Shown: in pieces, positions 3,165 to 25,836 of the stretch
How the letters are laid out: every line of letters begins with the position of its first letter
Numbering within the stretch: the first letter of the stretch is position 1
Source of the DNA: Polyangiales bacterium
Lineage (GTDB): Bacteria; Myxococcota_A; Polyangia; Polyangiales; JADJQN01
Length of the DNA: 64,000 bases
Assembly: GCA_964202905.1 (NCBI GenBank)
Contig: CAXNJO010000007.1
Coordinates: 64,001 to 128,000, forward strand
Direction of reading: 5' to 3'
Notes under the pieces: generated by a model
Databases searched by the model: none
Told to the model about the DNA's origin: nothing
The model's input: only the letters and a program-made list of their open reading frames with translations
Program-made: the position numbers and the translations under genes

Positions 3165-3256
3165 CGCGGCGCGCACGCAGCCTCCGCGCAGGTCTCCGAG
3201 CGCCTGTCGAATGATGTGTAAACGCGCGAAACAACGGCGCTTCACGCGGGTTGGCG

Positions 3257-3286: not shown

Positions 3287-3294
3287 CCGGCCCC

Positions 3295-5620: not shown

Positions 5621-8549
5621 TCAGGTCCCGTCGACGAGCACGTGGCGGAGCACGACGCCGCCAGTCCCCGCGACGTACACGTAGCGGTCGGCGCGCACGA
5701 CCGCGCGCAGGCTCTGGCCGGAGACCTCGAGCGGGAGCGTGCGCCAGAGGCCGTCCTCGCCCCGCTCGAGCGCGGTCCCGTCGTCCCCGACCGCGAGAGG
5801 GAGGCCCCGCGGTCCGAGGCCGATGGCGTGCAACGTCGGGCCCGCGTCGTGTTCGACGCGGCAATCGGCGGGCGATATCGCGACGATGAGCCCACCGTCG
5901 CCCGCGGCCCAGGCCTCCTGCCCCGCGCCTCGCACGACCCCGCGCAGCATGCGGCCGGATGCGGGTTCGCACGGTTGACGGGTGGTCCGCTCCGCGCCGA
6001 CGCGAAGCACGGCGCCGTTCGCGCCGACGACGAGCGCATCCTTGGGCGTGCCGGCGATCGCAGCGAGGTCGCCGGTGTCGGGCACGCGCGTCGCCTGCAA
6101 CGCGGCGAGCGGACCGCGGAGCAGCGTCCCTTCGCCCCCGACGACGAGGACGCCGTCTTCGTCCGCGACGACGTCGCGCCACGGCTGACGTAACGGTGAT
6201 GCGCGCAGGGTGGCACGGTCCGCGACGATTTCCACGAGCGCGCCGTCGTCGCCGACCGCGAGCAGGGCGTCGGGCCCGAGCGCCACGAGCCCCCCGAGGC
6301 CGGAGCGCGTGGGGGACACGCTCTCGGAAAACCCCGCCTCGCCTTCGCGGGCGATGCGCCCGTATTCGCCGACCGCCACGAGCGCGCCGCCGAGAGACGC
6401 GAGGTCGCGGATCGCACCGGTCGGTCCGGCGGTGAGCAGGCGGACGTGGTCGTCGGCGAGCGAGGCCACCCGTCCGCCCGCGCCGACCAGCCAGGTGCGC
6501 TCTCCCTGCGCGCCGGACAGCGCGTACCACGGGCGATCCGCGCCGCTCTCGAGTCGTACTCCGCGGTCGCCCTGCACGAGCAGGACCTCGCCGTGCGTCC
6601 CCGCGATCGCGATGCGATCACCATCACAGTCGATGGCGGTCCATGCAGAGGTTCCCGTGTCGCGGAGCGCGCGCCAGACGTCCGGTCCGACGCGCCGCAG
6701 CACGACGCCCCCGTCGCCCGCAGCGTAGAGCGGACCGCCGGGGCAGCCCCCGAGCCCACGGAGGGTCGCGCGGGTCCCGCTGCGCTCGCGGATGGCGCCG
6801 CGCGGTCCGACGCGCACGATGGTGCCGGCCTCACCCGCGGCGAAGACCTCCGCGCCGACGACCGCGAGCGCGCGCAGCGCAGCGCCGCCCGTCGCGCGCG
6901 CGGCGTCGAGCGCGGAGACGTGGCGGTCGACGACGCGGAGGAGCGTGCCCGCGTCGCCGGCGACGAACGCCTCCGTCGGCGACACGGCGGCGACGGCGTG
7001 CAGCGCGCGGTCGGTGCCTGCGTCGAGGCGAATCGGCGCCGCGTCGCTCAGCCGCACGAGGGTGCCGTGCGCGCCCGCGGCGAGCGCGTCGCGCGTGCCG
7101 GTGAAGGCGACGGCCTCGAGGTCCTCCGTCGTGCCCGTATCCCACGTGGCGAGGCCCTGCGGCATCAGTCGCGCCGCCGCGCCGCGTCGTCCGACCATCG
7201 CGACGAGCCCGCGGCCGCCGACGTCGAGGCCGAGGTAGGTTGGAAGCGCGCGGGGGAGCGGGTTCAGCCAGCGCCAGCCTTCGCCTCCGCCGCGGTCCGG
7301 TCCGGCGAGCGGCGCGGCCCGCGGGGCCGCCGGCGTCGGCAGCGCGCTCTGCTCGACGGGCTTCGGGCGGCGCTCGCCGAGCAGCGCGGTCGCGACCGTC
7401 GCGCTTGCGAGCAGCAGCAGCGCGAGCCCTGCGATGGGGAGCCAGCGTGACGACGGCGACACGACGGGGGGCACCGCGTCCGCCGCGCCGTCCGCATCGT
7501 CGTCGCCCGCCCGCGCCGGCGCGCGCTCGGCCCACGCACCGCCTGGCGACCTGGTCCGATCGCACCCACGCATCGCCCGCGGCCTGCGTCGCCGCGAGAC
7601 CAACCTGCTCGAGCGCGTCGAGCGCCGAGGGCGCGAGCGAGGCGGTCGGCGGCGCCTCGAGGATGACGGGCGCGCCGTCGAACGCGCGGAAGGGCGCGAG
7701 CGCCTCGCGGACCTCGCGCGCTGACGCGTGACGCTGGGCGCGATCCTTCGCGAGGAGCCGCTCGATCACCGCGCCGAGGGCCTCGGGGACGTCGCCACGG
7801 TAGCGGCGCACCGGGGGCGGCGGCTCGGTGCAGATCTTCACGATCAACATCGGGAACGAGCTGTCGTCGAAGGGATGTTGACCCGTGAGCGCGCGGAAGA
7901 GGATGACGCCGAGCGCGTAGAGGTCGACCCGGTGATCGACGTCCCGCGCGCCGCGCGCCTGCTCGGGCGCCATGTAGTAGGGCGTGCCGAGGGCCGTCCC
8001 CGTGCGCGTCGCCGCGTCCTGCGGCGTGCCGAGCGCGGCCTTCACCTTGCTGATGCCGAAATCGAGCACCTTCACGAAGCGCGGCTCGCCCTCGCGTCGC
8101 GTGAGAAAGACGTTCTCCGGCTTGAGATCGCGGTGCACGATCTCCTTCGCGTGGACGGCTTCGAGCGCCTCGCAGACCTGCGACACCACGTCGATGACGT
8201 CGGCGATCGGCAGCGGACCGCGCGCGCGGATCTCCGCGGCGAGGTCGTGCCCCTCGAGCAGCTCGAGCACCATGAAGACCGAGCCGTCCTCGGCCTCGCC
8301 GAGCTCGAGCACCTCGATGACGTGCGGGTTCCCGATCGCCGTCGCCGCGAATGCCTCGCGTCGGAAGCGCGCGACGATGTCCGGGTCGGCGGCGTATTGC
8401 GCGTGCAGCAGCTTGACCGCGACGCGCCCGCCGACGCGGATGTTCTCGGCTTCGTAGATCGTGCCCATCCCGCCGGCAGCGATCGCGCGGAGCAAACGGT
8501 AGCGACCGCCGAGGAGGGCGCCCACGCGCAAATCGCGAGCCTGCGTCAC
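5621..8549 (-). CDS. Receptor-type Ser/Thr protein kinase: Hanks kinase + TM + extracellular beta-propeller (one frameshift near 7530-7590, likely sequencing error)
   Basis: Kinase motifs IAAGGMGTIY, VAVK, HRDLKPEN, DFG, GTPYYMAPE in ORF 6831..8549. ORF 5621..7603 continues with TM 'WLPIAGLALLLLASATVATALLG' and about 14 'L.AV....hAAG.GG.hh' propeller blades (YCF48/BNR-like). Confidence 0.8.
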
Positions 8550-8555
8550 GGCGCG

Positions 8556-8682
8556 AGTGTATCCGCGTGTCCCGGCGACGGGTGCGCCAATCCGCCCGCG
8601 GAGCCCGTCCTCGATGCGCCGCCGGCGTCGCGCGCAAATCGTGGCCCGTCCATTGCTCTTCCGGAGCGCGTCGGCTTACTCT
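8556..8682. promoter_or_regulatory. Divergent promoter region shared by the kinase and the Tad cluster
   Basis: Minus strand: TACACT (8561-8556) 6 nt before kinase GTG 8549. Plus strand: TTGCTC 8653-8658, N18, TACTCT 8677-8682, 9 nt before flp ATG 8692. Confidence 0.55.
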
Positions 8683-8691
8683 CGGAGACTC

Positions 8692-8952
8692 ATGACCCCA
8701 TCCGCGCTCCCCACCCTGGCCATCGCACGCTCCCTCCGGGCGGTCGTGCGTGCGCGTTTGGAGCGTGCGCGGTCCGCGTCCGCGGCAGGCGAGGGCCTCG
8801 CCGAGAACGAGCGCGGCGTCGCGATGGTGGAGTACGTGACGCTGCTCTGTCTCGTCACCCTCAGCGGTGCGGCGACCGTCGTCGCGCTCGGCGTGCCGCT
8901 CATGCAGCTCTTCCGCTACGTCCAGATGGTCATCGCGATGCCCATCCCCTGA
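8692..8952 (+). CDS. flp: Flp-family type IVc prepilin 1 (86 aa)
   Basis: Class III cleavage site 'ENERG|VAMVEY' with E5-Y6 followed by a hydrophobic helix. Confidence 0.8.
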   Translation: MTPSALPTLAIARSLRAVVRARLERARSASAAGEGLAENERGVAMVEYVTLLCLVTLSGAATVVALGVPLMQLFRYVQMVIAMPIP

Positions 8953-9043
8953 GGGCGTCGGGCGCGACGTCTGCGTCCCGCGTCTCGAGCCACCGATTCT
9001 CCCCGCAACCCCGAACGAACGCGTCAACCCCGAGGAGTGCCCC

Positions 9044-9279
9044 ATGGCGAAGAAGACCCCGTCGAAGTCCATCGTGCTCGAGACCCCGAAGAAGGACCTC
9101 CCGTCGCTGCTCCGCGATCAGCGCGGTCTGACCACGGTCGAGTACATCATCATCCTCTGCCTGATTGCGGTCGTGGGCTTCGGCGTCTGGAAGAAGTTCG
9201 GCGCGACGGTCAAGGACGCGCGTCGGCGAGGCGAACGACACGCTCGGCGCGTATGTCCGGCGAAGCCACCACCGAGTAG
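9044..9279 (+). CDS. flp: Flp-family type IVc prepilin 2 (3' end carries two apparent +1 indels near 9218 and 9252)
   Basis: SD GAGGAG 9032-9037; 'RDQRG|LTTVEYIIILCLIAVVGFGVWKKFG'. Removing two bases gives a plausible tail 'VGEANDTLG.MSGEATTE*' ending TAG 9277-9279. Confidence 0.75.
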
Positions 9280-9292
9280 TCCGCGACCCGGC

Positions 9293-9847
9293 ATGCTGCC
9301 TCAGTGGGCCACGGACGGCGCGCGCATCGCCGCGCTCGGGGTCGTCGCAATCGCGGCGTTCACCGACGCGCGGCGTGAGCGAATCCCGAACTGGCTCACG
9401 CTCCCCGCGATCGCGTTCGGGCCTTTGTTCTGGCTGTTCGCGGACTTCTACTGGGGCGGGATCCGCTCGCTCCTCGGCCTCGTCCTCTGCGCCGCGGTCC
9501 CGTACTGGCTGTTCCGGCGCGGGGCGTGGGCAGGGGGCGACGTCAAACTCTTCGCGGCGATCGGCGCCCTCGTGGGCGGTGACTACGGCGGCGTCGGCCT
9601 CGGCATCGAGGCGCTGCTCTTCACGACGATGGCGGCGGCTGCGTACGCCCTCGTGCGGCTCGCCTGGGAGGGCAAGCTGCTGCGCACGCTCGCGAATGCG
9701 TTCTTCCTGCCGCTCAACCCGGTGCTCCCGAAGGCCTGGCGTCGGGAGATCACCCCGGAGCTGATGTCCCGGGTGAGGCTTGGCGTACCCGCGCTGGTGG
9801 GGACTGCGGTCGCCGTCGGGCTCCGTTACCCGACGCTGTGGATGTGA
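9293..9847 (+). CDS. cpaA: A24 prepilin peptidase (CpaA/TadV)
   Basis: Multi-TM; 'AFTDARRERIPNW' and 'AGGDVKL' carry the two catalytic aspartates. Confidence 0.9.
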   Translation: MLPQWATDGARIAALGVVAIAAFTDARRERIPNWLTLPAIAFGPLFWLFADFYWGGIRSLLGLVLCAAVPYWLFRRGAWAGGDVKLFAAIGALVGGDYGGVGLGIEALLFTTMAAAAYALVRLAWEGKLLRTLANAFFLPLNPVLPKAWRREITPELMSRVRLGVPALVGTAVAVGLRYPTLWM

Positions 9848-9942
9848 TGTTCGCGTGCGCGCGTGTGCCGGGCGCCCGAACGGGCGCGGCAGCGCCGGAG
9901 CGCGGGAGGGGCGCCGGTGAGCGGCGCCAAAGGAGGCTCGCG

Positions 9943-10950
9943 ATGACGTTCGCTTCGAGGCGCGACGCCGACCCCCGTGATGACGCCGACCCCCGTGATG
10001 ACGCCGACCCCCGTGATGCAGCGGCGACACGCACTGCGCCGTGGGGGCTCGCGCGCGACGAGCGCGGCGCGGCCTATGTCGAGTTCCTGATCGTCTTCAT
10101 CCCGATCTTCATGATGTTCCTGGGGATGATCCAGGCCGCGATGATGTACGCGGCGAACCTCGTGGTGACGCACGCGGCGAACACCGCCTCGCGCGCAGCG
10201 ATCGTCGTGCTCGACGACGCCGAGTCCGCCTACGGCGACGAGGACCGGAACGACCTCAGCGGGGGCGGCGGCGGCGAGTCCCCCCTCGACAAGGTCGACG
10301 GTTTCCTCGAATGGGCGGGCTTGGGCTCCGCCGCCGCTGCGCCGGCCCGCGAGGCGGGCTCGACCTCGGGCGCGCGGATGAACGCCATCCGCAGCGCGGC
10401 TTCGATCCCACTCCTCGCCGTCTCGCCGTCGATGAGCCAGCTGGTCGGGTCGGAGAGCGTCTACGCCGCGATCGGCGGCAACCCCGCCGAGCGCGGGCTG
10501 ACGGGCGCCGCCGTCTACAACCGCACGGCGGTCGCCGTGACGTTCCCGACCGCGCGCGCCGGCACGAACTACAAGGCGCAGTTCGCCACCAACGAGGACG
10601 TCACCGTCCGCGTGACCTACCTCTTCCACTGCGCCGTGCCGCTCGTGAACCGCATCATGTGCGACGATATTATCGCCCTGAAGACGGGCGTGCCGCTCGC
10701 CGCCGTGCGCGCCCTCGCGGAGCGCACCGCCAGCGGAGACGCCTCACCGGCCGAGATCGCGGCGCTCATCGAGCGTGTGCGTGACGGGCGCGCCCGATTG
10801 CAGCGCGCGAACCCCGGCGTCGCCGAGCTGGACGGTGCCGAGTCGCCCTGGCTCGCCTCCCTCACGGCCGTGACGGGCGCGCGCTTCCTCGTGCTGCGTG
10901 CCGAGGCGACGATGCCCAACCACGGGGCCGCTTACAGCTATGTGGAGTGA
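9943..10950 (+). CDS. TadE-like pseudopilin (large, 335 aa)
   Basis: SD AGGAGG 9931-9936; 'RDERG|AAYVEFLIVFIPIFMMFLGMIQ...HAANTASRAA' TadE N-terminal motif. Confidence 0.8.
   Translation: MTFASRRDADPRDDADPRDDADPRDAAATRTAPWGLARDERGAAYVEFLIVFIPIFMMFLGMIQAAMMYAANLVVTHAANTASRAAIVVLDDAESAYGDEDRNDLSGGGGGESPLDKVDGFLEWAGLGSAAAAPAREAGSTSGARMNAIRSAASIPLLAVSPSMSQLVGSESVYAAIGGNPAERGLTGAAVYNRTAVAVTFPTARAGTNYKAQFATNEDVTVRVTYLFHCAVPLVNRIMCDDIIALKTGVPLAAVRALAERTASGDASPAEIAALIERVRDGRARLQRANPGVAELDGAESPWLASLTAVTGARFLVLRAEATMPNHGAAYSYVE
9964..10017 (+). repeat. Perfect 18-bp tandem repeat x3 (GACGCCGACCCCCGTGAT; DADPRD) in the prepilin leader
   Basis: Copies at 9964-9981, 9982-9999, 10000-10017. Confidence 0.95.
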
Positions 10951-10954
10951 CGCG

Positions 10955-12314
10955 ATGAGCACCCGACCCGCGCCGACGTCCGCTCCCGAATCCGCCGCCG
11001 CCGGCCGCCCCGGTCTCGTCGCCGACGAGGGCGGCGCGATCATGGTCATCGGCGTGTTCATGGCCGTCCTGCTGGTCGGCTTCATGTACTACCTGATCGG
11101 CGTCGGCGAGACGATCTTCTACCGCGAGCGCATGGCCGACGCGGCCGACGCGGGCGCGTGGGCGGCAGCCGTGATGCATGCGCGCGGGATGAACGCGATC
11201 GTGCTCATCAACATGATCATGGCTGCCATCGCTGCGGTCGTGCTCGCGATCGGCGCGGTGCTCTTCATCATCGACGTGGGCATCGCGATCGCGACGGCGC
11301 TCGTGGCCTCGGTGGTCACCGCGCCCATCGGGGCGCCGGTGCTCAGCTGCGCTCACCCCGATCCGGCCGGTCGTGAACACCATCCATCAGGCCGCGCAGC
11401 GCTTCGCGAATGCCGTCCTGCCCGTGCTCAACAAGGCCGCGACCGGCGTGAAATACGCGACGCCCTGGATCGCGCAGGTGAAAGTGCTGAACGTCGGCGA
11501 GTCGTACAAGCCGCCCGTCGACGTGGGCATCTTCGTGTCGAAGACGCTCGTCGACGGGCTGCCCGTCGAGGACGACGAGTGCAAGGTCCTCGAGGATCGC
11601 GGCATCAAGTACATCGAGGTCCTGATCGGCAACGCGCTCGGCAACATCCCGATCCTGAGCACCGTGATGGGGTGGGTGGGCGGCCTCGCGGCGAAGGCCG
11701 GCAGCGCGGTCTACGGCGGCGTCTGCGGGAGCGGCGGAGGAACCGCCGGCGCCGACGTGGTCTCGGACGCCGTCGGGGCTGCGACGGACGCGGCCATGGA
11801 AGAGGCGGGCTGCAACGACGACCCGCCCCCGGACCCGATGCCCGAGGGCTGCGACGCGGAGCTCCCCGAGACGAGCGGCGTGACCGCGCCCGCGAGCACC
11901 TCGACCGGCTCCGACGGCAAGGGCCCGAAGAAGGTCAAGGACGACTGCAACCTCGGCGACGAGTGCTTCCAACTCCGCGCCATCATGGTCGGCACGCCCG
12001 GCTATGAGAAGACGATGCGCGGCGTGCAGATCGCGAACTGGGGCCACGAGAACGAGACCGGCTCCATGTACACCCAGATGGCGAACCTCGGCCGCGGCTC
12101 GCTCGCGCAGGCGGAGTTCTACTGGGACAAGGGCGACGAGGACGCGCAGGAGATGCGCGACGACTGGATGTGGGAGATGAACTGGCGCGCGCGTCTGCGT
12201 CGGTTCCGCGTCCCGGCTGACTCGCTGCTCGGTGACGCCTGCACCGCGGGGGGCGGCTTCTGCGACGCCATCCTCGGGAGCGCGGACATGATCAACGCGG
12301 TTATCGTGCACTGA
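10955..12314 (+). CDS. TadG-like pseudopilin/tip protein with Cys-rich C-terminal domain (single +1 indel near 11348)
   Basis: 'ADEGG|AIMVIGVFMAVLL...MADAADAGAWAAA' Tad motif. Deleting T11348 joins ORF 10898 to ORF 11373 (...APVLSALTPIRPVVNTIHQ...), giving about 452 aa with 8 Cys in the C-terminal part. Confidence 0.75.
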
Positions 12315-12898
12315 TGGAGCGCCCGATGAACGCCACGGCCCGCGTCTCCACTCCCCACCCTGCGACGGCCCCGGGTCGCCGCGCGCTGCGTGCGCTGTTG
12401 CCCCGCCCGCTCCGCGCGCTCCTCCGAGACGAGCGCGGCAGCGTCATGACCGAGGCCGTCGTGATGCTCCCGTTCTTCGTGCTCGTGTGGGGCTGCATCA
12501 TCTACGTCTCGCAGCTCTACGAGAAGGGCATCGAGACGCAGGCCGTCGCGCGCGAGTGCGCATGGCGCCACGCCAAGGACAACTGCGAGGGCGATTCGCG
12601 CTGCGCGATCGCCGCCGGCCTCGACCCGAGCCGGGATTACGGCAGCGGCGACGACGCCGCCATCGAGTCGGCCGAGGGCTCCGGCGGCCCGGGCTTCCTC
12701 GGCGACGGCTTCCTCACCAACATCCTCTTCGGGGCCGACGTCACGGCGACGGCCGAGGACACGACGCGCAAGCCCGAGCTGATTGGCGGCGGCGACGCGC
12801 AGCTGACGGGCAAGGTCGGCCTCGCCTGCAACGAGAAGCCACGGGGCAACCTGGGCGAGGTCATCAGCAGCGCGTGGAGCGCGCTGTGGACGTTCTGA
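12314..12898 (+). CDS. TadE-like pseudopilin
   Basis: 'RDERG|SVMTEAVVMLPFFVLVWGCII'; start overlaps the upstream stop (TGATG). Confidence 0.8.
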   Translation: MERPMNATARVSTPHPATAPGRRALRALLPRPLRALLRDERGSVMTEAVVMLPFFVLVWGCIIYVSQLYEKGIETQAVARECAWRHAKDNCEGDSRCAIAAGLDPSRDYGSGDDAAIESAEGSGGPGFLGDGFLTNILFGADVTATAEDTTRKPELIGGGDAQLTGKVGLACNEKPRGNLGEVISSAWSALWTF

Positions 12899-12911
12899 TG
12901 CGGGGGGCCCG

Positions 12912-13910
12912 ATGAGCGTGCGTCGACCATCGTCCATGTCGCTCGGCGCGCTCGTCTGGGCGCGCATGAAGAGCAACGCCATTGAGTACGTGCCACGGTT
13001 CGCGCGGGTCGGGGCGCTGCTCGCGGCCCTCTTCGCGATCGCCATCGTCGTCGTTGGGCACCGCGCGAAGGCCGACCTGCACGAGGTGATGATGGGCTTC
13101 GGCGCGCAGATGATGCGCTACGAGGGCGCGCAGCGGCAGGGCGCGCCGCGCCAGCTCTATCTGAACGGCGAGCGGATGCTGCTCGCGACGGCCTCGACGA
13201 CGCACAGCCTCGACGCCGTGCTCGACTACTACGAGCGCCGCTGCATGGCCCGCGACGGCGCGCTCGAGCAGGAGCTCATGCGCGTGAGCGGCGCGGAGGC
13301 GTCGCGACTCCCCGTCGACGAGCGCCTCATCGACGCGACGATCCGCCACGACACGGGCGGTCGGGGTTATGTCGCGTGCCTCGACATGGGCGAGGACGCG
13401 ATCGGACTCACCGAACTCAGCGCGCGCCTCAAGTCCTTCTCCGACACGGGCAACCTCGGGGACGTCGGCCACCTCCGTTACGTCTACGTGACCGACGAGA
13501 CCACCTCGCGGCACGTCGTCACCTTCTGGACCGAGGGGCGCTTCGAGCTGCGCAAGGTCGTGCCCGAGACGGGCGATGCGCCGGGCCGCGACGTGGACGC
13601 GTTGCCACGCCCTGCGGGGTCGCGGCGGATGCTCTCCGCGTGGGAAGACGGCCAGCCGCAGTCGCTCACGGTCTACGCCTTCGCCCCGCAGGGCGAGGAG
13701 GCGCTCGAGCGCTTCTACCGTACGGAGCTCCCCCGACGCGGCTGGCGCGTGCACTCGCCGCGCGATCTCGCCGAGGGCTCGCTGCAGCGCCCCCCCGAGC
13801 TCGACGATGTGCGCGTGCTCGGCGCCGAGCGCGCGGGCCGCAGCGCCTTCCTCGTGCTCGGCGAGGACGCCGAAGGACACGGCACGCTCACCGTCCTGAC
13901 GGCGCGCTGA
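12912..13910 (+). CDS. Hypothetical membrane-anchored protein within the Tad cluster
   Basis: Good GC3 codon bias, N-terminal TM (VGALLAALFAIAIVVVG), located between pseudopilins and cpaB; no family recognised. Confidence 0.7.
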   Translation: MSVRRPSSMSLGALVWARMKSNAIEYVPRFARVGALLAALFAIAIVVVGHRAKADLHEVMMGFGAQMMRYEGAQRQGAPRQLYLNGERMLLATASTTHSLDAVLDYYERRCMARDGALEQELMRVSGAEASRLPVDERLIDATIRHDTGGRGYVACLDMGEDAIGLTELSARLKSFSDTGNLGDVGHLRYVYVTDETTSRHVVTFWTEGRFELRKVVPETGDAPGRDVDALPRPAGSRRMLSAWEDGQPQSLTVYAFAPQGEEALERFYRTELPRRGWRVHSPRDLAEGSLQRPPELDDVRVLGAERAGRSAFLVLGEDAEGHGTLTVLTAR

Positions 13911-14004
13911 CGCCGGTCGCCGCGCATCCGCGCAGGGCGCCGAGGTCGCACCTCTGCGCTTCTATTCCTCCGCGATCCGGTCTAGGGTCGCGCCCGAGGA
14001 ATCG

Positions 14005-14829
14005 ATGAATCGCAAGGCGCTGATCGCGGCGGGCGTCGCGGCCCTCGCGGGGCTGGGGATGCTTTATCTGTACATGAAGCGCTTCGAGGCCGAGGCCTCA
14101 GGCGGCGCGCCGGTCATGGTGCTCATGGCCACGCAGGACATCCCGCTCGGCACCGCGATCACGCGGCAGATGGTGGGCGCGCGGCCGCTGCCGAGCGCGT
14201 ACCTCGAAGAGCGACACATCCGCGCGTCGGACGCCGAGCGCGTCTACGGCGTGCGCGTCTCGATGGGCGTGAAGTCGAACGAATCCGTGCTTTGGACGGA
14301 CCTCGCGACGACGAGCGAGCAGCGGCGTGACCTCTCGGCGCTCGTGCGGAACGGCCAGCGCGCGATCACGGTGCGCGCCGGGTTGACCTCCTCCTTCGGC
14401 GGACTGCTCCGGCCGGGCGACCGCGTCGACGTGCTGCTCACCGCGGACCGGCCCGGCTCCGCGCTCGCGGGCGTGGGCGATCTCTCCTCGGCGCGCGTGA
14501 CGATCCCGCTGCTGCAGAATCTCCTCGTGCTCGCGGTCGGCCGCGACACCGGTGGCGAGCAGGCGCAGGGCGCGGCGCGCACGGGCGCCCGCGCGAACGG
14601 CCAGCCCAACCAGGTCACGCTGAGCGCGACGGTCGCGCAGTCGCAGACGCTGACCTACGCCGGTGATCGCGGTGAGCTGACGCTCATCCTCCGCAACCCC
14701 GACGACATCGCCATCCTCGACGGGCTGCCCGAGACGAGCGCCCGCGACATCCTCGAGCCCGAGCGCCGCGCGACCCTGCTGCGTCGCGAGCGCCCCGAGA
14801 CCGCCCCGGAGATCGAGCGTGTCCAATAG
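14005..14829 (+). CDS. cpaB: Flp pilus assembly protein CpaB/RcpC
   Basis: N-terminal TM, SAF domain 'VLMATQDIPLGTAIT', 'GQRAITVR...GGLLRPGDRVDVLLT', 'LLQNLLVLAVG', 'GELTLILRNPDD'. Confidence 0.93.
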   Translation: MNRKALIAAGVAALAGLGMLYLYMKRFEAEASGGAPVMVLMATQDIPLGTAITRQMVGARPLPSAYLEERHIRASDAERVYGVRVSMGVKSNESVLWTDLATTSEQRRDLSALVRNGQRAITVRAGLTSSFGGLLRPGDRVDVLLTADRPGSALAGVGDLSSARVTIPLLQNLLVLAVGRDTGGEQAQGAARTGARANGQPNQVTLSATVAQSQTLTYAGDRGELTLILRNPDDIAILDGLPETSARDILEPERRATLLRRERPETAPEIERVQ

Positions 14830-14833
14830 CCCC

Positions 14834-16090: not shown

Positions 16091-16094
16091 GACG

Positions 16095-18667: not shown

Positions 18668-18681
18668 CCTCGCGGAGACCC

Positions 18682-19599
18682 ATGCTGTTTCAGCCCTCCA
18701 CGCTCACCGTCCTCGTCGGCCTCGTCTCGCTCGGCCTGTTCGCGCTCGGCGTGGCGTCCGCGGTCTTCGTGCTCGCGCGGAACCCGCCTGCTGTCCCGCC
18801 GCGCCTCGGCGCGCGGGGCTTGCGGCGCGCGCAGGCGCTCGCGGACGGCGGTCTCTTCGCGGTCGTCGAGCCCGTGATGCGCGTGACCGCGGGTTGGATC
18901 TCGCACCTGCCGATCGCGCCTCGGCGTCACGCGATCGACGAGCAGCTCGTGCACGCGGGCGATTGGCTCGGTCTCACGGCGGACGAGTACATCGCGCTCA
19001 CGAGCCTCTCGGGCGTGTTCTTCTCCATCCTGGGGCTCTCGATCATCACGATGCTCGAGCTGCCCGCGATGCTCGCGTTCTTCTTCGCGGGGCTCGGGCT
19101 CGTCCTCCCGTACATGCGGCTCACCGGTGAGATCGCGCGGCGTTTCAAGGAGGTCAACCGCTCGCTCCCGGCGGCCATCGATCTCGCGGCGCTGTGCATG
19201 AACGCGGGCCTCGATTTCCCGGGCGCGCTGCGGCAGTTCGTCGACAAGTCGGCCTCACGGCAGGACACGCTCGTCCTCGAGTTCGGCCGCATCCTGCAGG
19301 AGCTCGAGCTCGGGCGGACGCGGCGTCAGGCGCTCGAGAACTTCGCCGAGCGCTGCCCGACGGACGCCGTGCGTGATTTCGTCGGCTCGGTGGTGCAGGC
19401 CGAGGAGAAGGGCAACCCGTTGGCGCAGGTGCTGCGAATCCAGGCGGGCATGCTGCGCATGCGGCGCAGCATCATGGCCGAGGAGAACGCGGCGCGTGCG
19501 GCCGTCATGATGATGGGGCCGCTCATGCTGATTTTCTGCGCGATCATCATCATCCTGCTCGGCCCATTCATCGTGAACTCGATGGGCAAGGGGGTCTGA
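18682..19599 (+). CDS. tadC: TadC inner-membrane platform protein (T2SSF family)
   Basis: 'LPAAIDLAALCMNAGLDF..AL', 'ELELGRTRRQAL', 'QAEEKGNPLAQVLRIQA..R..AEENA'. Confidence 0.9.
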   Translation: MLFQPSTLTVLVGLVSLGLFALGVASAVFVLARNPPAVPPRLGARGLRRAQALADGGLFAVVEPVMRVTAGWISHLPIAPRRHAIDEQLVHAGDWLGLTADEYIALTSLSGVFFSILGLSIITMLELPAMLAFFFAGLGLVLPYMRLTGEIARRFKEVNRSLPAAIDLAALCMNAGLDFPGALRQFVDKSASRQDTLVLEFGRILQELELGRTRRQALENFAERCPTDAVRDFVGSVVQAEEKGNPLAQVLRIQAGMLRMRRSIMAEENAARAAVMMMGPLMLIFCAIIIILLGPFIVNSMGKGV

Positions 19600-19605
19600 A
19601 CGAAC

Positions 19606-20472
19606 ATGGACACCTACGTCGAGGTCCTGCGCGCAGACGGAAGCTCCGAGCGTCACCGCATCGAGGGCGAGCAGATGACGCTCGGCCGCTCGCCGGCGGC
19701 CGGCATCACGGTCACCGGCGTCGACGAGCTCGAGCCCGAGCACCTGCTCGTCGCCCCGCGCTCGGACGGCTGCTGGGTGGCGATCGCGAAGGGCGCGCGG
19801 GTCGGCGCCGTCGTGCGGGGCGCGCCGTTCGAGCACGGGCTGCTCGCGTGGGGCTCGGAGATCGAGATCGGCTCCATGCGCTTGCGTGTGAGTGACGTCG
19901 TCCCGGGCGCGAAGAAGGAGCAGAAGGTCAGCACGCCGGTCGCGCTCGCCGCCCTCGTCGGGATCGGGCTCGTCGGGTGGATGCTGCTGTCGGACAATGG
20001 GGGCGAGCTGCCGGAGACCGCGGCGACGGCGCCTCCGCTCTTCGGCGCGCTGCCGACGTGTGGCTCCGACGGGCCCGCGGCGTTGCACGGCGCGCGCGAG
20101 GCCGCCGAGGCCGCGGCCGCGAAGAGCGAGCGCTACGTGTTCAGCGCACAGGACGGCGTGACGGCGGTCTCGCTCTACGGGCGCGCGCAGGTGTGCTTCG
20201 GACAGGCGGGAGCCGCGGCCGCCGCGCGCCGGATGTCGACCGAGCGTGAGGCGATGACGCGTCGGATCGACGAGGACTACAAGACGCACCGCCTGCGCCT
20301 CGAGCGCTCGCTGCACCACGCGCGCTTCCCCGAGGCGCTCGTCGAGGCGCACGCGCTGCGGGCACTCACGCGGCACCTCGAGGGGCCGTACGTCGACTGG
20401 CTCATGCTGCTCGAGCGGCGCCTGCAGATGCTCGTGGACACCGCGAACCTGCGGGCCTCGAGCGGGCAGTGA
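19606..20472 (+). CDS. Degenerate-FHA, single-TM protein with helical periplasmic domain
   Basis: 'MTLGRSP...LEPEH...WGSEIEIG' FHA-like N-terminus, TM 'VALAALVGIGLVGWMLL', helical C-terminus with two Cys. Confidence 0.7.
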   Translation: MDTYVEVLRADGSSERHRIEGEQMTLGRSPAAGITVTGVDELEPEHLLVAPRSDGCWVAIAKGARVGAVVRGAPFEHGLLAWGSEIEIGSMRLRVSDVVPGAKKEQKVSTPVALAALVGIGLVGWMLLSDNGGELPETAATAPPLFGALPTCGSDGPAALHGAREAAEAAAAKSERYVFSAQDGVTAVSLYGRAQVCFGQAGAAAAARRMSTEREAMTRRIDEDYKTHRLRLERSLHHARFPEALVEAHALRALTRHLEGPYVDWLMLLERRLQMLVDTANLRASSGQ

Positions 20473-21320
20473 CGGCGCCGGGCGCGATGGCCTCCCGACC
20501 GCGCCGTCTGTTCGCGCCGTGCGTCGCGGCCGTGCTGACCGTCGCGGCGTGCGGGGGCGCGGGCGCGGGCGCGCCGGAGGGCCCGCCGCCGACGGATCCG
20601 GTCGCGGAGGTGGGGGCGCAGCGCCTCTTCGACACGGGGATCGCGGCGGCCGCGCAAGGGGACTACGTGCGCGCGGAGCAGTACCTCGCTGCCGCGGGCG
20701 CGCGCGGGTACGAGGAGGCGGCGGTCATCGGGCCGCTCGTGCGCGTGTGCGTCGCGGCCTCGCGGCTCCGGCAGGCGCTCGTCTACGCGCAGCCCTACCT
20801 CCGGCGGCACGCGACGGACTGGCGGCTGCGCTTCGTCGTCGCGGCGGTGCTGCTCGGGCTCGAGCGGGTCGACGATGCGCGCGCGGAGCTCGAGCGCGTG
20901 ATCGCCACCGCGCCGGAGGCCCCGGAGCCGTACTTCGTGCTCGGTGCGCTGCTGCGCGACCGGCTCCGCGACGACGCCGCTGCGCGGCCGCGCTTCGAGC
21001 GCTACCTCGCGCTCGTGCCGGAGGGTGCGCACTCGGACGAAGCGCGCGTCGCGCTCGCGTCGCCGCTGCCCGCGCAAGGGCCCCCGCAAGTGACCCCGCA
21101 GGACCCGACGCTCCAGCCCGCGCCGACCCCGGTGGCTCTGCCGGCGCCAGCGGCGCAGCCGGTTCAGGCGCCAGCGGCGCAGCCGGTTCAGGCGCCAGCG
21201 GCGCAGCCGGTTCAGGCGCCAGCGGTGCGGGCCGCCGTGCCCCCCGCCGCGCCGCCGGGACCGGTGCGGCTCCCCGCGCGCACGCGCCCGACGCCTCCCA
21301 CCGAGACAGGTACGCCGTGA
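20469..21320 (+). CDS. TPR lipoprotein (TadD/pilotin-like) with Pro/Ala-rich tail
   Basis: Lipobox-like 'VLTVAAC', TPR helices ('APEAPEPYFVLGALL', 'FERYLALVPEG'). Confidence 0.7.
   Translation: MTAPGAMASRPRRLFAPCVAAVLTVAACGGAGAGAPEGPPPTDPVAEVGAQRLFDTGIAAAAQGDYVRAEQYLAAAGARGYEEAAVIGPLVRVCVAASRLRQALVYAQPYLRRHATDWRLRFVVAAVLLGLERVDDARAELERVIATAPEAPEPYFVLGALLRDRLRDDAAARPRFERYLALVPEGAHSDEARVALASPLPAQGPPQVTPQDPTLQPAPTPVALPAPAAQPVQAPAAQPVQAPAAQPVQAPAVRAAVPPAAPPGPVRLPARTRPTPPTETGTP
21144..21225 (+). repeat. Perfect 24-bp tandem repeat, 3 copies plus a partial copy (GCGCCAGCGGCGCAGCCGGTTCAG; APAAQPVQ)
   Basis: Copies at 21144-21167, 21168-21191, 21192-21215, plus a 10-bp partial copy. Confidence 0.95.
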
Positions 21321-22441
21321 TCCCGAAAGAAGTCTTCGAGCAGACGCTGCTCTCGTTCCTCGAGCCGATCCGGCCCTTTCTCGACGACGCGTCCGTCAGC
21401 GAGATCATGATCAACGGGCCCTTCGAAATCTACATCGAGAAGAAGGGCCGGCTCCACAAGACCGACGCGAAGTTCGCGTCGCAGCACGCGCTCGAGGCCG
21501 CGCTGCGGAACCTCGCGCAGTACGTCGGGCGGCACATCGACGAAGAGCGCCCGATCCTCGAGGCGCGCCTCCCCGACGGCTCCCGTGTCGAGGCGGTGCT
21601 GCCGCCGGCCGCGCCCGACGGGCCGAGCGTCGCGATCCGCCGCTTCTTCAAGGAGACGCTCACCGTGAAGCGGCTCCTCGAGTTCGGCTCGTTCACGCAG
21701 GACGCGGCCGACTGCATGCACGCGATCGTCGCCTGCAAACAGAACGTCATCGTCGCGGGCGGCACCGGCTCGGGCAAGACGTCGCTCCTCAACGTGCTGT
21801 CGTCCTTCGCCGCCGAGGACGAGCGCGTCGTGGTGATCGAGGACTCGCGCGAGTTGCAGCTGCAGCGGCCACACGTCGTGCAGCTCGAGGCGCGCCCGCC
21901 GAACGCGCGGGGGCGCGGCGCGGTGTCGATCCGCGATCTCTTCAAGGCGACGCTGCGCATGCGCCCCGACCGCATCGTCGTCGGCGAGATCCGCGGCGCC
22001 GAGGCGCTCGACCTGATCCAGGCGATGACCTCGGGCCACGGCGGCTGCCTTTCGACCGTGCACGCGAGCTACCCGATCGACACGTGCAACCGCCTCGAGA
22101 CGATGGCGCTCATGGCCGACGTGGGCCTGCCGCTCTTCGCGCTGCGCGCGCAGCTCGCGAGCGCGGTCGACGTGATTGTGCAGACCTCGCGCCTCGCGGA
22201 TGGCTCGCGCTGCGTGACGCACCTGACCGAGGTGCGAGGCTACGATCCGCAAGGCGGTTATCGGCTCGCGGATCTGTTCGTCCGCGAGTACGATGGCAAG
22301 GACGCGACGGGCAAAGTGCTCTCGCGCTTCGTGCCGACGGGCGAGCTCCCGAAGAGCCTCGAGATGATCCGCGCGCACGGCCACGAACTGCCGCAGTCGA
22401 TGTACGACGCGGCCGAGCGGCGCGGCGCGCACCGCGACTGA
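21317..22441 (+). CDS. cpaF: Second CpaF/TadA-family ATPase (374 aa, no FHA)
   Basis: GTGA overlap with the upstream stop; 'FLDDASVSEIMING', Walker A GGTGSGKTS, 'VIEDSREL', 'LRMRPDRIVVGEIRG', 'SGHGG..STVHA'. Confidence 0.92.
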   Translation: MIPKEVFEQTLLSFLEPIRPFLDDASVSEIMINGPFEIYIEKKGRLHKTDAKFASQHALEAALRNLAQYVGRHIDEERPILEARLPDGSRVEAVLPPAAPDGPSVAIRRFFKETLTVKRLLEFGSFTQDAADCMHAIVACKQNVIVAGGTGSGKTSLLNVLSSFAAEDERVVVIEDSRELQLQRPHVVQLEARPPNARGRGAVSIRDLFKATLRMRPDRIVVGEIRGAEALDLIQAMTSGHGGCLSTVHASYPIDTCNRLETMALMADVGLPLFALRAQLASAVDVIVQTSRLADGSRCVTHLTEVRGYDPQGGYRLADLFVREYDGKDATGKVLSRFVPTGELPKSLEMIRAHGHELPQSMYDAAERRGAHRD

Positions 22442-22496
22442 CGGTCGCTCCGCAATCCGACGCATCGCGCGCGAACTTGGCTAAGATGCGGGCCGC

Positions 22497-24014
22497 ATGG
22501 TCGACCCGCGCCACGGTCCCCAGGTCCGGCCCGCTCCGACGTCCTGGGCGCGCGTGCGCCTGCTGAAGGGCGACTCCGCGGGCGGGCTGTGGGACGTCTC
22601 GAGCGACATCCCCGAGGCCCGCATCGCCATCGGCAGCGATGCGGGCTGCGGTTGGCTGGTGCGTGGCAGCGGCGTCGCGCCATTCCACTTCGAAGTCTAT
22701 TGGGACGGCACCGTGCTCTGGGTCGGCAACAGCGCGGGCGCGCCGGACGTGCGCCTCGATGGTGAGCCGCTCGGCGATTGGCGTCCGATCAGCGGCCGCG
22801 CGCGGATCGAGTTCGGGCGGGCGGCCATGCTGGTCGAGGCGTCCGACGCGGTGGCGCGCGCGTCGGTCGTGCCGCAGCCGCGGGACTCTCAAGCCCCGTT
22901 CGAGAGCGAGAACACACGCATCGCGGCGCCGCGGGACGAGCGGCGCGAGGTGTACGCCTCCGGGAACAGCGCCCTGCAGGAGGTGCCGCCGCTCAGCGAG
23001 CTCGAGGCGAAGCCCTCGCGTGGAGTGCATGCGGCGTTGGGGGCGTCCGGCGACGGGGGCGCGACGCGCGTCGTCTCGTTGGCCGAGGCCGAGGCGGGCC
23101 GTGCGGCGCCGGTCGCGGCCCCGCGGGTCGGCGTGGGGGCGGGCGTGCGGCGCGTCGAGGAGCCCCCGCCGATCTCGGAGGAGGCGACGCGCCTCGGCGT
23201 CTTCGCCGGCGCGGGGCAGGCGAGCGCGCTCCCGCCGGGCGTCTCTGCGGCCTCGCGAGCGGGGGGCGGTCCGGGGGGCGGCGCGGTGGGCGTGGCGTTG
23301 GGGGCGCCGAGCGGGGCGCCTTCGCCTTTCGGCCCGTCGGTCGCGGCGCCGTCCGCTTTCGACGCGCCGGGCGCGGGGGCAGGGCTGCGCGGGCCTGTCG
23401 CGGGCGCGGCGAGCCCGTTCGCGGCGCCGCCGCCGGTGGCGGCTGATCCGTCGTCGATCGCGTTCGCGCGGGTCGGCGAGAAGCTGAAGGGCGGGCTCGG
23501 CAGGCCCAAGCTGTCGCAGCCGCCGCGTACGTGGCTGCTGCTCGCGCTGGTCGTGGCCGTGCTCGTGGTGTTCGTGCTCGACGCCTTCGACCCGACGCCG
23601 GAGCCTCCGGCCGGGTCTCCCGCGGTGGCCACGCAGCCCGCGGCCTCTCCGCCCGGGACGGCGGACGCCGGGTTGGCGGCGGTCCCCGCTTTGGCGCGGA
23701 TCGGGGCAGGCCTCGCCGTGGGACCGGGCGGGCTGGTCGCGGGCGGCATGCCGCTCGCGGTGGCCGACGCGGGGGTCGCCGCGCCGTCCGGGGACACGCC
23801 GCCCGGTGCGCCGGTGCCCGCGACGCCGGAGCGCCAGGCCGCGGACGCGCTGATCGCCGGTCGCTACCGCGAGGCGCTCCCGCTCTATCAGGCGCTCGCT
23901 GCGGCGAACCCGCAGAACCCCACCTTCTCCCAGATCGTCGTCGTGCTCGAGCGGCGCGTGCGGGCCGCGTGTCGCGACGGGCTCACCCCGGAGGGCACGC
24001 AGTGCGAGCCGTGA
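22497..24014 (+). CDS. Degenerate-FHA + Gly/Ala/Pro linker + TM + C-terminal TPR-like protein
   Basis: 'IAIGSDAGC..VAPFH..VRLDGEPL..RIEFG', TM 'WLLLALVVAVLVVFVL', 'AADALIAGRYREALPLYQAL', terminal Cys pair; TAAGAT 9 nt upstream of the ATG. Confidence 0.65.
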   Translation: MVDPRHGPQVRPAPTSWARVRLLKGDSAGGLWDVSSDIPEARIAIGSDAGCGWLVRGSGVAPFHFEVYWDGTVLWVGNSAGAPDVRLDGEPLGDWRPISGRARIEFGRAAMLVEASDAVARASVVPQPRDSQAPFESENTRIAAPRDERREVYASGNSALQEVPPLSELEAKPSRGVHAALGASGDGGATRVVSLAEAEAGRAAPVAAPRVGVGAGVRRVEEPPPISEEATRLGVFAGAGQASALPPGVSAASRAGGGPGGGAVGVALGAPSGAPSPFGPSVAAPSAFDAPGAGAGLRGPVAGAASPFAAPPPVAADPSSIAFARVGEKLKGGLGRPKLSQPPRTWLLLALVVAVLVVFVLDAFDPTPEPPAGSPAVATQPAASPPGTADAGLAAVPALARIGAGLAVGPGGLVAGGMPLAVADAGVAAPSGDTPPGAPVPATPERQAADALIAGRYREALPLYQALAAANPQNPTFSQIVVVLERRVRAACRDGLTPEGTQCEP

Positions 24015-24739
24015 ACCCGCCGCTGGGCGCGCCGCTCCTCACGCACTTCGCCGTGCTGCTCGGCGTCGCGTCCGTTCTCGTGGTCGGCGCCGCGTGCGAC
24101 GACCCGCCTCCGCCGCCCGAGTACCGCGTCTCCTTCACCGCGCTCGCCGATGCGGCGGCCCTCGGCGGCGTCGAGATCGCCGTCGCCGGGCGCCCGCTGG
24201 GGGTGACCGGGCCGGACGGGACGCTGCGCGCGAACCTGCGCGGGCGCGAGGGAGCGGTCGTGGCGTACCGCGTCAAGTGTCCGGAAGGATTCAGGGAACC
24301 GGAGCAGTCGCCGCCTCTGACCTTGCGTCGCTTCCGCGGCCTCGACCCGGCCGCGGCCGCGCGGGGCATCGAGCTCAACATCCAGTGCCGGCCGGCCGAG
24401 CGCCTCGCGGCGGTCGTCGTGCGGGCGGGCGGCATCCCCAACCTGCCGGTGCTGATGCAGGGGCAGCCCGTCGCGGTCACCGACGCGAGCGGCGTCGCGC
24501 ACCTGCTGCTGAAGCTGCCGCCGAACACCAGCTTCACGATGACGGTCGACACGCGCGCCAACCCGCGCCTCGTGCCGGCGAGCCCGACGCAGCCCTTCGT
24601 CGTGCCGGACGCAGACGACGTCCTCGTCTTCGACGCCCCGCTCGCCGAGCAGCAGGCGCCCACGAAGCGGCGCCGGGCCGTGCGCCGCGCGCCCGTGTTC
24701 ACCGGGCCGGTGCGGATCCCCTCGTCCGGTCGGCGCTGA
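24011..24739 (+). CDS. Lipoprotein with two transthyretin/carboxypeptidase-regulatory-like beta repeats
   Basis: GTGA overlap; lipobox-like 'VVGAAC'; repeated 'GxPxxVTxxxG' motifs (GRPLGVTGPDG, GQPVAVTDASG). Confidence 0.65.
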   Translation: MNPPLGAPLLTHFAVLLGVASVLVVGAACDDPPPPPEYRVSFTALADAAALGGVEIAVAGRPLGVTGPDGTLRANLRGREGAVVAYRVKCPEGFREPEQSPPLTLRRFRGLDPAAAARGIELNIQCRPAERLAAVVVRAGGIPNLPVLMQGQPVAVTDASGVAHLLLKLPPNTSFTMTVDTRANPRLVPASPTQPFVVPDADDVLVFDAPLAEQQAPTKRRRAVRRAPVFTGPVRIPSSGRR

Positions 24740-24819
24740 GCGCCTCGGCCCGGGGCGTGCGCCGCCGGCGGGCCGCGCCGAGAACTTGGAGCGACGGCGG
24801 TCGCGTAGTACGCGGGGCC

Positions 24820-25836
24820 ATGCTTCGCTCGCGTTTCTTCGCGTCCGCCGCGCTCGGCCTGGCGCTGCTCGCCACGATGGTCCCGTCGCGCGCGCGCGCG
24901 GACGGCGCAGCGGTGCTCGCGGTGCGCGAATCGGCGCGCGTCGCCGACCGCGTACGGCGGGAGGGCGAGGCCGCGCTGGTCGCTGCGCTGGCCGCCGACG
25001 GTGTGCGCGTGCGGACCGCCGCCGACACGGAGGCCGTGCTGGTCGGCGATCCGCTCGCCGAGTGCGGCGCGGTCGACTGCGCGGTGGCCGTCGCGCGGCG
25101 GCTCGGCGTCGATTTCGTCGTCGTGCTTTCGGTGTTCGGCACCGACGCGCAGGCGGACAGTGTCGCCGTCGCGCTCGCGACCGCCGACGGGCTGAGCTTC
25201 GGCGGGGAGGCCGACGTCGACGCCGCACGCCCGCTCGCGCGCGCGGTCGCCGACGCGCTCGCCGAGGCGCGGATCCGGCAGGGCGCCGGAACGCGCGGCA
25301 CGCTCCGCGTCGAGACGACGCCGTCGGGTGCCACCGTGCACGTCGACGGCGAGTTTCGCGGGGAGACCCCGCTTTTCCGCGCGGTCGAGCCGGGCGCGCA
25401 CCGCGTCGTGGTCAGCCAGTCGGGCCGTGTGACCGAGTCGCGCGACGTCGTCGTGCAGCTGCACGAGGAGACGACGCTGCAGCTCGCGCTCGCGCCGGTC
25501 GCGCCCTCTGCGCCGCGGGTCGCCGCGGTCCGGCGCCCGCTGCTCGGGCCGTTGGTGCTCGGTGGTGCCGGCGCTGCGCTGCTCGCGTTCGATCTCGGCT
25601 CGCTCGCGGCGCTCGGGTGCAGCGAGGAGGCGCCGGGGGGCGCGTGCCGCCGCCGCGTCGTCGTCGATCCGCTGCCCTTCGGGCTCTACGCCGGAGTCGG
25701 TGCCGGCGCCGTGGTCGGCGCGCTGCTCTGGTGGCTGCTCGGGGCCCGCGAGGTCGAGACGGCGCAGGCCGCGGGCGCCGCGTCGCTGCGCCTCGACGTC
25801 GGCCTGCGCGAGGTCTCGCTCCGCGGCCGTTTCTGA
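24820..25836 (+). CDS. Secreted PEGA-domain protein
   Basis: Signal peptide ending 'SRARA'; PEGA 'GTLRVETTPSGATVHVDGEFRGETP..PGAHRVVV'; hydrophobic hairpin and C-terminal 'VSLRGRF' typical of myxobacterial PEGA proteins. Confidence 0.8.
   Translation: MLRSRFFASAALGLALLATMVPSRARADGAAVLAVRESARVADRVRREGEAALVAALAADGVRVRTAADTEAVLVGDPLAECGAVDCAVAVARRLGVDFVVVLSVFGTDAQADSVAVALATADGLSFGGEADVDAARPLARAVADALAEARIRQGAGTRGTLRVETTPSGATVHVDGEFRGETPLFRAVEPGAHRVVVSQSGRVTESRDVVVQLHEETTLQLALAPVAPSAPRVAAVRRPLLGPLVLGGAGAALLAFDLGSLAALGCSEEAPGGACRRRVVVDPLPFGLYAGVGAGAVVGALLWWLLGAREVETAQAAGAASLRLDVGLREVSLRGRF

Follow-up and report, generated by a model that had tools for sequence, protein, structure and literature searches.

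A Kil-related Tad pilus operon with two CpaF-family ATPases in a Polyangiales genome

A Tad pilus cluster encoded at positions 8692-24739 (+ strand, flp1 through a lipoprotein gene) of a 64,000-nucleotide stretch of Polyangiales DNA, hereafter the window, raises the question of whether it is a prey-killing apparatus of the Kil type known from Myxococcus xanthus and whether the receptor kinase encoded beside it belongs to it, as had been proposed from the sequence alone. The window corresponds to G000:C7:64001-128000, where G000 is the source genome (5.68 Mb, 94% complete, 73% GC); other G- and L-codes denote the other genomes and loci compared. Our analysis leads to the reading, to which we assign a probability of about 0.6, that the locus is a complete, vertically inherited Tad (type IVc, T4cP) pilus operon of a Polyangia/Bradymonadia subtype, sister to the Kil system of Myxococcus and equipped with two motor ATPases, the kinase being a genus-specific neighbour. 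The identity of the system, taken by itself, is very probable. The alternatives weighed below are not all mutually exclusive.

Matches to Pfam and NCBIfam families, together with prepilin motifs, place Flp pilin, prepilin peptidase, TadA ATPase, TadB, TadC, secretin and RcpC in the cluster. The full Tad set of the sequence-only reading (two Flp pilins, A24 peptidase, three TadE/G/F-type pseudopilins, CpaB, secretin, TadB/TadC) is borne out, but both CpaF ATPases, here named F1 and F2, had been left out of that list. The genes of the cluster are as follows.

8692..8952, + strand: Flp prepilin 1 (flp1), with a G|xxxxEY motif kept in relatives
9044..9279, + strand: Flp prepilin 2 (flp2), weak PF04964 match below the cut-off; frame break near 9214
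9293..9847, + strand: prepilin peptidase, CpaA/TadV/KilA-like (A24), PF01478, E 1e-12
9943..10950, + strand: TadE-like minor pilin of the tip trimer (tadE1), PF07811, E 2e-8
10955..12314, + strand: TadG-like large minor pilin, tip backbone (tadG); frame break near 11345, a 446-aa ORF in G001
12314..12898, + strand: TadE/F-like short minor pilin, prepilin motif and cross-match to the TadE profile
12912..13910, + strand: X12, membrane-anchored conserved protein of no known family (52-row alignment; model pLDDT 90)
14005..14829, + strand: CpaB/RcpC/KilB, PF16976 and TIGR03177 (above cut-off)
14834..16090, + strand: short secretin (pilus N-domain and secretin), PF00263 and PF13629, no BON match
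16095..17804, + strand: F1, FHA-CpaF motor ATPase, PF00498 and PF00437
17801..18667, + strand: TadB/CpaG platform protein, PF00482 and tree
18682..19599, + strand: TadC/CpaH platform protein, PF00482 and tree
19606..20472, + strand: fha2, degenerate FHA-like domain, TM helix and periplasmic helical domain, weak Yop-YscD_cpl match
20469..21320, + strand: TPR lipoprotein, TPR Pfams
21317..22441, + strand: F2, second CpaF-family ATPase, PF00437
22497..24014, + strand: fha3, degenerate FHA-like domain, long linker, TM helix and short periplasmic tail, from sequence and alignments
24011..24739, + strand: beta-sandwich lipoprotein of a Myxococcota-specific family, lipobox, Atlas 0.95 to unnamed Myxococcota clusters

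This arrangement is conserved across the order. At least 32 of 41 genomes (G000 and 40 relatives) hold an F1-type match, and at least 31 of these 32 an F2-type match, the two types being classed by identity and position; none of the 8 genomes without F1 has an F2 match, G025, with a broken F1 plus F2, being set aside. The regions compared, from many families, show the same gene order with minor rearrangement. Among the 63 of 80 named F2 loci that had at least 6 kb of upstream sequence, fha2 and the TPR gene precede F2 in 61, F1 and the secretin in 58 each, TadB and TadC in 57 and CpaB in 56. Among cultured strains, Chondromyces apiculatus and Labilithrix luteola carry the cluster, and the Polyangiales-like host supposed earlier is supported by the closest named F2 relatives (92% and 80% identical), metagenome-assembled genomes (MAGs) both labelled Sandaracinaceae. 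A full two-ATPase cluster is also kept by a member of the order whose genome is one contig of 1.8 Mb (G124:C1:1508000-1522000, L256), and G010, G030, G040 and the Labilithrix record have two such clusters each. The literature already records Kil homologues from Polyangiales: Tad(kil) homologues are reported in Chondromyces, Minicystis, Labilithrix and Sandaracinus, and not in Sorangium (PMC10196010), and consecutive kil-gene matches in Sandaracinus, Chondromyces and Labilithrix (Herrou 2025, PMC12075869).

As to the relation to Kil, of which the locus had been called an expanded form, the phylogenies uphold the kinship and reject strict membership. In the ATPase tree of 39 rows the Polyangiales F1 proteins form one clade (100/98), which unites with families f32, f52, f33 and f44 (100/99); this branch joins the KilF-type ATPases (17 rows, 96/87), and alpha/beta-proteobacterial CpaF lies elsewhere in the tree, as do the ordinary Tad loci of the same phylum. 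A quick tree of 95 rows gives a like result, and a CpaB+TadB+TadC tree (24 rows, without KilB/G/H of Myxococcaceae) agrees, grouping the locus with f32 (95/99), so that the core proteins fall on the Kil-like side and not with ordinary Tad. A clade of F1 and KilF only was rejected by the approximately unbiased (AU) test (p=0.0003). By these comparisons the locus is Kil-like in the broad sense, as a sister lineage rather than an orthologue.

The KilF proxies used here are metagenome loci found with a KilF-like protein, not Myxococcaceae genomes; among 401 genomes of the phylum no KilF-level match above 67% identity was found. The proxy loci have the Kil cluster-I order (FHA gene, peptidase, BON-secretin, FHA-ATPase, FHA-FHA-TPR), which is the order of Supplementary file 1 of Seef et al. 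(2021, PMC8460266). The L268 ATPase is nearly the same as the KilF rows of the alignment of these authors, and the L222 ATPase, of family f32, equals over the columns compared the row Bsediminis, which they used for Bradymonas; in part 1 of 7 of their Fig. 7 data, where row names are abbreviated, no Polyangiales row was recognised.

A stricter alternative is that the locus is the true orthologue of M. xanthus Kil, killing in the same manner with a needleless type III secretion system (T3SS*). The FHA-fused ATPase, the short secretin, the FHA-rich neighbourhood and the tip trimer would all fit it, as would the match of F1's sister, the f32 ATPase, with the Bradymonas row, and the second, dispersed copies of six T3SS export-type genes (SctN/T/U/R/V/J-type) that G000 carries outside its flagellar cluster, at C1:470k, C3:175k, C3:443k, C5:176k, C6:7k and C9:60k. 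Against it stands, besides the AU result, a KilF-type FHA fused elsewhere in G000 to a CpaF-like domain without Walker A (G000:C5:355411-357495, L312:7412-9496): its FHA is 63% identical to the KilF proxy FHA, and in the FHA tree (row L233, not an FHA, being disregarded) the KilF FHA groups with this dead-ATPase family (91/94), not with F1. The locus also has two ATPases, whereas Kil is described with a single FHA-fused one, for which FHA signalling was proposed (Seef 2021, PMC8460266); BON is present in 3/3 KilC-type secretins and has no match in the secretin here; and single-sequence tblastn in G000, itself 94% complete, gave no match for the MXAN_3102/3103-type genes of Kil cluster I and matched KilD at the level of its FHA domain only, no KilD orthologue being found. 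We consider strict orthology improbable.

Around these elements a few further observations were made. A KilF-type FHA match occurs in 17/20 fetched loci of the dead-ATPase fusion type, and a divergent kinase lies beside the C5 dead-ATPase gene in G000 and G003. The SctJ-like gene comes after two kinase genes. The flagellar cluster (G000:C3:757000-786000; L244, L245) appears complete, with FlhA/B, FliF/G/I, hook, rod, P/L rings and a flagellin-like protein, and such a complete cluster is unusual for myxobacteria.

Another possibility is an adhesive or surface-sensing Tad pilus without killing, the kinship with Kil reflecting shared Myxococcota ancestry only. Most characterised Tad pili are adhesive (PMC6668835), one MAG survey gives well-conserved Tad-like sets only in Myxococcaceae (PMC11821767), and the published hidden Markov models (HMMs) of Kil Tip1-4 are scored NA for three Polyangiales, Sandaracinus, Chondromyces and Labilithrix (Herrou 2025, PMC12075869), so that one cannot count on killing as in Myxococcus; the absence of MXAN_3102/3103-type matches from G000 points the same way. 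On the other side, the trees place F1, like the platform proteins, beside Bradymonadales and Kil-type proteins and not with ordinary Tad, including that of the same phylum; the dispersed non-flagellar T3SS export set is present in G000; and no ParA/CbiA-type match, as expected of TadZ/CpaE, was found among the cluster proteins scanned, the rest of the genome not having been searched. A purely adhesive function is unlikely, though less so than strict orthology with Kil. For the preferred reading, of a Kil-sister pilus, we suppose from the kinship with Kil that the most likely service is cell-cell contact with prey, a role whose chances we regard as about even.

The second ATPase sets the locus apart. 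The best matches of F2 among PDB sequences are CpaF (E 4e-98), those of PilT following at 1e-8. It is about 45% identical to F1 and falls into a clade of its own (99/97 in the 39-row tree), whose partners, more numerous in the 95-row tree, come from lineages that also carry F1-type motors; a recent duplication of F1 was considered and discarded, both ATPase trees separating the two. With residues numbered by alignment with Caulobacter CpaF, and over rows that are related and not independent, equivalents of R223, K287, E312, R347, E357, R359 and H382 are kept in 104/104 F2 rows and that of R217 in 102/104; the Loop-8 Asp is D in 87 and N in 14 of 104. The N-terminal helical domain NTD1 is missing, the hinge position Gly149 being Gly in 9/104, and the central-loop position E331 is K/R in 101/104 F2 rows, as against E in 95/95 F1, 8/8 KilF-type and 3/4 proteobacterial rows. 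In Caulobacter CpaF the hinge glycines, G149 among them, and the central loop are required for function (PMC11300603). Because the catalytic residues are kept, NTD1 is absent and the charge at E331 is reversed, F2 is, as judged from its residues, intact as an enzyme and altered on the face it turns to the platform. The operon thereby appears to depart from the single-motor rule, with two catalytically intact CpaF paralogues; for Tad pili one bifunctional motor is described, and unlinked tadA paralogues in Bdellovibrio (bioRxiv 10.64898/2026.07.08.737194). We found no published description of F2 or of a second ATPase at such a locus, in a search that did not cover subscription journals (e.g. 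Thiery 2022), figure panels and bioRxiv supplements.

As for the function of F2, we suppose that it is most likely a second motor, opposing or accessory, perhaps serving retraction or disassembly by analogy with a minimal PilT. In the narrower form of a separate retraction-type motor this proposal is tentative and would have to be called doubtful. Still more speculative is an independently evolved two-motor Tad system in predatory Myxococcota, convergent with PilB/PilT, in which a phosphothreonine-gated FHA-CpaF would extend the pilus, a minimal F2 would retract or disassemble it, and the Thr motifs of fha3 would form a built-in docking switch. F2 might instead be no motor in its own right but form a hetero-hexamer with F1, or belong with fha3 and the lipoprotein to an accessory module for effector loading or tip exchange. 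In Caulobacter CpaF the NTD1 hinge is essential, so the loss of this domain from F2 would agree with a protein that may not work alone on the platform, and in family f32 F2 lies away from the core operon, beside a membrane pseudokinase and the lipoprotein homologue; but the catalytic residues and the Loop-8 Asp are kept, as expected of a cycling motor, and F1 and F2, about 45% identical, stand in distant clades. We hold the reading without a separate F2 motor to be possible and rather unlikely. The f32 pseudokinase, with a replaced catalytic loop (L223:2945-4930; L262:9876-11876), occupies the place of fha3 after F2 and is followed by the lipoprotein homologue.

Three FHA or FHA-like readers had been counted in the cluster. 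Only the FHA of F1 is a clear Pfam FHA (E 8e-15); fha2 scores 18 bits against Yop-YscD_cpl, for which the cut-off is 33.2, and the N-domain of fha3 has no Pfam match and aligns to the F1 FHA at 20% probability. Scored against what we take to be the pocket motif (Gly-Arg, Ser-x-x-His, Asn), the F1 pocket in 99 rows keeps R27 in 94, S41 in 94, H44 in 93 and N62 in 91, the remainder being mostly gaps. In fha2 the pocket Arg is kept in 26/96 and the Ser and Asn are absent; in fha3 both the Arg (Ser in 24/35) and the Ser (Ala in 21/35) are replaced. By these residues, canonical phosphothreonine reading is possible only for F1 among the three domains, and the reader role falls away for the other two. 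In the cytoplasmic linker of fha3 a [DE]xT[RQKM]-hydrophobic motif, picked after inspection of the sequences, occurs 22 times in 16/25 linkers against 1.2 in shuffles, 11 of the 36 rows having been dropped as truncated or without a TM helix above threshold. These Thr motifs are a candidate phosphothreonine ligand of the F1 FHA. A complex prediction with two F2 copies and the fha3 N-domain scored 0.00, which gives no answer and is evidence neither way.

It remains to consider the kinase. The following features lie next to the operon.

5621..7545, - strand: receptor-kinase part with the TM helix and extracellular beta-propeller repeats (YCF48/BNR-like); left boundary a stop, right boundary approximate (frame break)
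7546..8549, - strand: Ser/Thr kinase domain with intact catalytic motifs, PF00069, E 2e-40
8642..8657, + strand: sigma54-type (-24/-12) promoter-like site facing flp1, 11/12 consensus positions
24820..25836, + strand: PEGA-domain protein, PF08308

The kinase (start 8549, - strand) and the first pilin (start 8692, + strand) are indeed divergent from one intergenic region of 142 bp (8550-8691), as the sequence-only reading had it. The kinase-Tad synteny across Polyangiales, on which that reading had staked its claim beforehand, did not hold up: a kinase orthologue adjoins the cluster in 1/35 loci, in G001 of the same genus, the 35 being those of 47 loci whose sequence reached 2 kb or more upstream of the cluster's first gene, with the other 12 passed over. 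In five others of the 35 unrelated kinases (29-33% identity) lie at 3.6-12.2 kb, and one more has a weak 36-bit internal match. Clear kinase-propeller orthologues exist in 7 more of the 41 genomes, on contigs other than that of the F1 locus and fused in frame in 5/7 orthologue loci; G193 is a single record of 9.07 Mb, in which 5.2 Mb separate the orthologue (6.80 Mb) from the Tad locus (1.60 Mb), the orthologue is unlinked in G194 as well, and none was found at E<=1e-20 in the cluster-bearing genomes G190-G192. A kinase of any sort stands 10 kb or less from F2 in 3 of the 80 named loci, and the propeller in none. The 1/35 synteny, the unlinked orthologues and the loss of the pocket from two of three FHA-like domains leave kinase coupling unsupported.

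The reading in which the receptor kinase, divergently encoded, serves as a dedicated sensor and gates pilus assembly through three FHA readers nevertheless has something in its favour: the kinase is adjacent and divergent in both G000 and G001, its catalytic motifs and the F1 pocket are intact, C. apiculatus and G028 have non-orthologous kinases within or beside their cluster, a pseudokinase comes after F2 in f32, and chance would place a kinase so near in few cases. With ~85 kinase loci in G000, a random 17-kb stretch has a kinase at most 1.2 kb upstream in 1.8% of cases and at most 3 kb from either end in 8.6%. Set against the synteny, the missing orthologues and the degenerate FHA-like domains, and against a promoter-like site that faces the pilins and recurs where the kinase is absent, the dedicated sensor is very improbable; as a member of the system the kinase was rejected on its synteny, and it is very probably an incidental neighbour of the pilus operon. 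Even with this kinase set aside, phosphorylation as such may be a theme that recurs among these clusters. The propeller part, with Atlas leads at only 0.82-0.88 and no Pfam match, is probably outside the pilus system.

The promoter-like site was scored by a sigma54 -24/-12 consensus that we assume to be the standard one. Such sites occur in 8/25 upstream regions, compared with 0.33 in shuffles (maximum 3), none being on the reverse strand, and they recur at loci without the kinase. A scan of 8400-9100 for a sigma70 promoter and a terminator found nothing.

From the observed gene content, order-wide synteny, phylogenetic position and residue states we infer the following mode of action. The sigma54 promoter would drive the operon, and CpaA would mature the two Flp pilins and the TadE/G/F tip trimer, the part that would meet the prey. 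F1 still has the residues by which Caulobacter CpaF contacts the platform and would be the assembly motor on TadB/TadC; its FHA would dock on phosphothreonine, most likely in the fha3 linker motifs after their phosphorylation by one of the genome's ~85 kinases. F2 would be active as an ATPase and would engage the machine in a way of its own, as its lack of NTD1 and reversed central-loop charge suggest.

Several points tell against this picture. F2 is not clearly present in G034, which has F1; Polyangium is reported to be without a Tad(kil) system (PMC10196010); and the Tip1-4 result mentioned above leaves killing as in Myxococcus in doubt. For the root of F2 the tree depends on a single outgroup with a long branch. 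In the Caulobacter central-loop mutant function was lost when four residues including E331K were altered jointly, so a single charge swap is suggestive only (PMC11300603). That Kil has one ATPase is taken from Seef et al., Myxococcaceae genomes not having been searched. The Thr motif, besides its choice after the fact, is found in 1/4 of the genes after F2 in other lineages, and the sigma54-like site is seen in no more than 8/25 regions. Finally, against the kinase being a bystander, the operon of C. apiculatus includes another, different membrane Ser/Thr kinase immediately behind F2 (L150:11164-12942), and G028 has a non-orthologous kinase just downstream of the cluster.

Tad pili are the textbook case of a single ATPase that serves both extension and retraction, and two intact, deeply diverged CpaF motors in cultured strains make the switching of direction testable. 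For Kil-type FHA motors a candidate phosphothreonine ligand is suggested, and the kinase link is not a general feature of the cluster.

As to the state of the assembly, frame breaks interrupt the receptor kinase (near 7545-7590), flp2 (near 9214) and tadG (near 11345). In the congeneric G001 the kinase, TM helix and propeller form one 970-aa ORF and TadG one ORF. Contigs were compared from 4 of 18 runs, the best-matching of which may represent the source sample: all 4 runs, like G001, lack the extra base at 9214, the break at 11345 is absent in run X1, and run X2 spans that site without showing the change. The three breaks are probable assembly errors. Three near-identical 18-bp repeats lie at 9966-10020, in the 5' end of tadE1, and are lacking in the G001 protein.

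The single-locus character ascribed to the system holds for the one complete operon, but G000 has, in addition to the dead KilF-type ATPase on C5, a second partial copy at C5:18900-30450 (L001; 32-61% identity) with cpaB, tadB, tadC, fha2, fha3, lipoprotein, flp, peptidase, tip trio and X12 and without ATPase or secretin. It was rejected as a conserved partner and seems lineage-specific, since G001, G002, G003, G190 and G193 have a single TadB each; it may be an alternative tip source or decaying.

Some accessory proteins deserve a remark. In the X12 model the C-terminal domain resembles periplasmic PA1624/DcrB (6td9, Z 10.0, rmsd 2.8, 103 residues), while a fold search with the TadG model (pLDDT 77) gave no PDB match at E<=0.001. 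The TPR lipoprotein is called a TadD-like pilotin by position and class, not by homology; as a TadD homologue it was rejected, having no TadD match among PDB sequences. The TPR and beta-repeat lipoproteins and the PEGA protein, all earlier counted into the system, are all present, but for the PEGA gene a search of the other loci found no homologue (E<=1e-3, at which divergent copies could be missed), and it is probably not part of the cluster. At 1589-5523, convergent with the kinase, are encoded an ECF sigma factor, a zf-HC2 anti-sigma factor and a receiver-coiled-coil protein, which we take to be AglZ-like by its architecture.

One of the closest known systems is the Kil-like cluster of Bradymonadales (PMC8460266). 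It has the same core order, cpaB-secretin-FHA/ATPase-tadB-tadC, followed in L222 by FHA and TPR genes, sister F1 ATPases, a secretin without BON match and, in the same genomes, an F2-clade ATPase and a homologue of the lipoprotein. It differs in that F2 of family f32 lies in a separate module with the pseudokinase, while here everything stands in one operon, which also carries the Flp pilins, peptidase and tip genes; F2 is not mentioned in the text and tables of Seef et al. that were compared.

Kil of M. xanthus is encoded in two clusters, MXAN_3102-3108 and 4648-4661 (PMC8460266, PMC12075869), in contrast to the single operon here. Both have an FHA-fused CpaF with intact pocket, a short secretin, CpaB, TadB/C, prepilin peptidase, a three-pilin tip, FHA-rich accessory genes and no TadZ in the cluster. 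They differ in the number of ATPases (two here, one there), in the position of F1 outside the KilF clade, in the secretin without BON match, in the lack of detected KilD and 3102/3103 orthologues, in the degenerate state of the accessory FHA-like domains here and in the tip family.

With Cpa of Caulobacter (PMC11300603) the locus shares the core parts, and the CpaF catalytic residues are kept in F1 and F2. Unlike Cpa, it has no TadZ/CpaE in the cluster, an FHA fusion, a separate tree branch and, in F2, a second ATPase without NTD1 and its hinge and with the central-loop charge reversed.

The type IVa pair PilB/PilT, in which a longer ATPase with an N-terminal regulatory domain is matched with a minimal one, resembles F1 and F2 by analogy only. 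F2 is of the CpaF family, so the division of labour between the two motors, if any, would be convergent.

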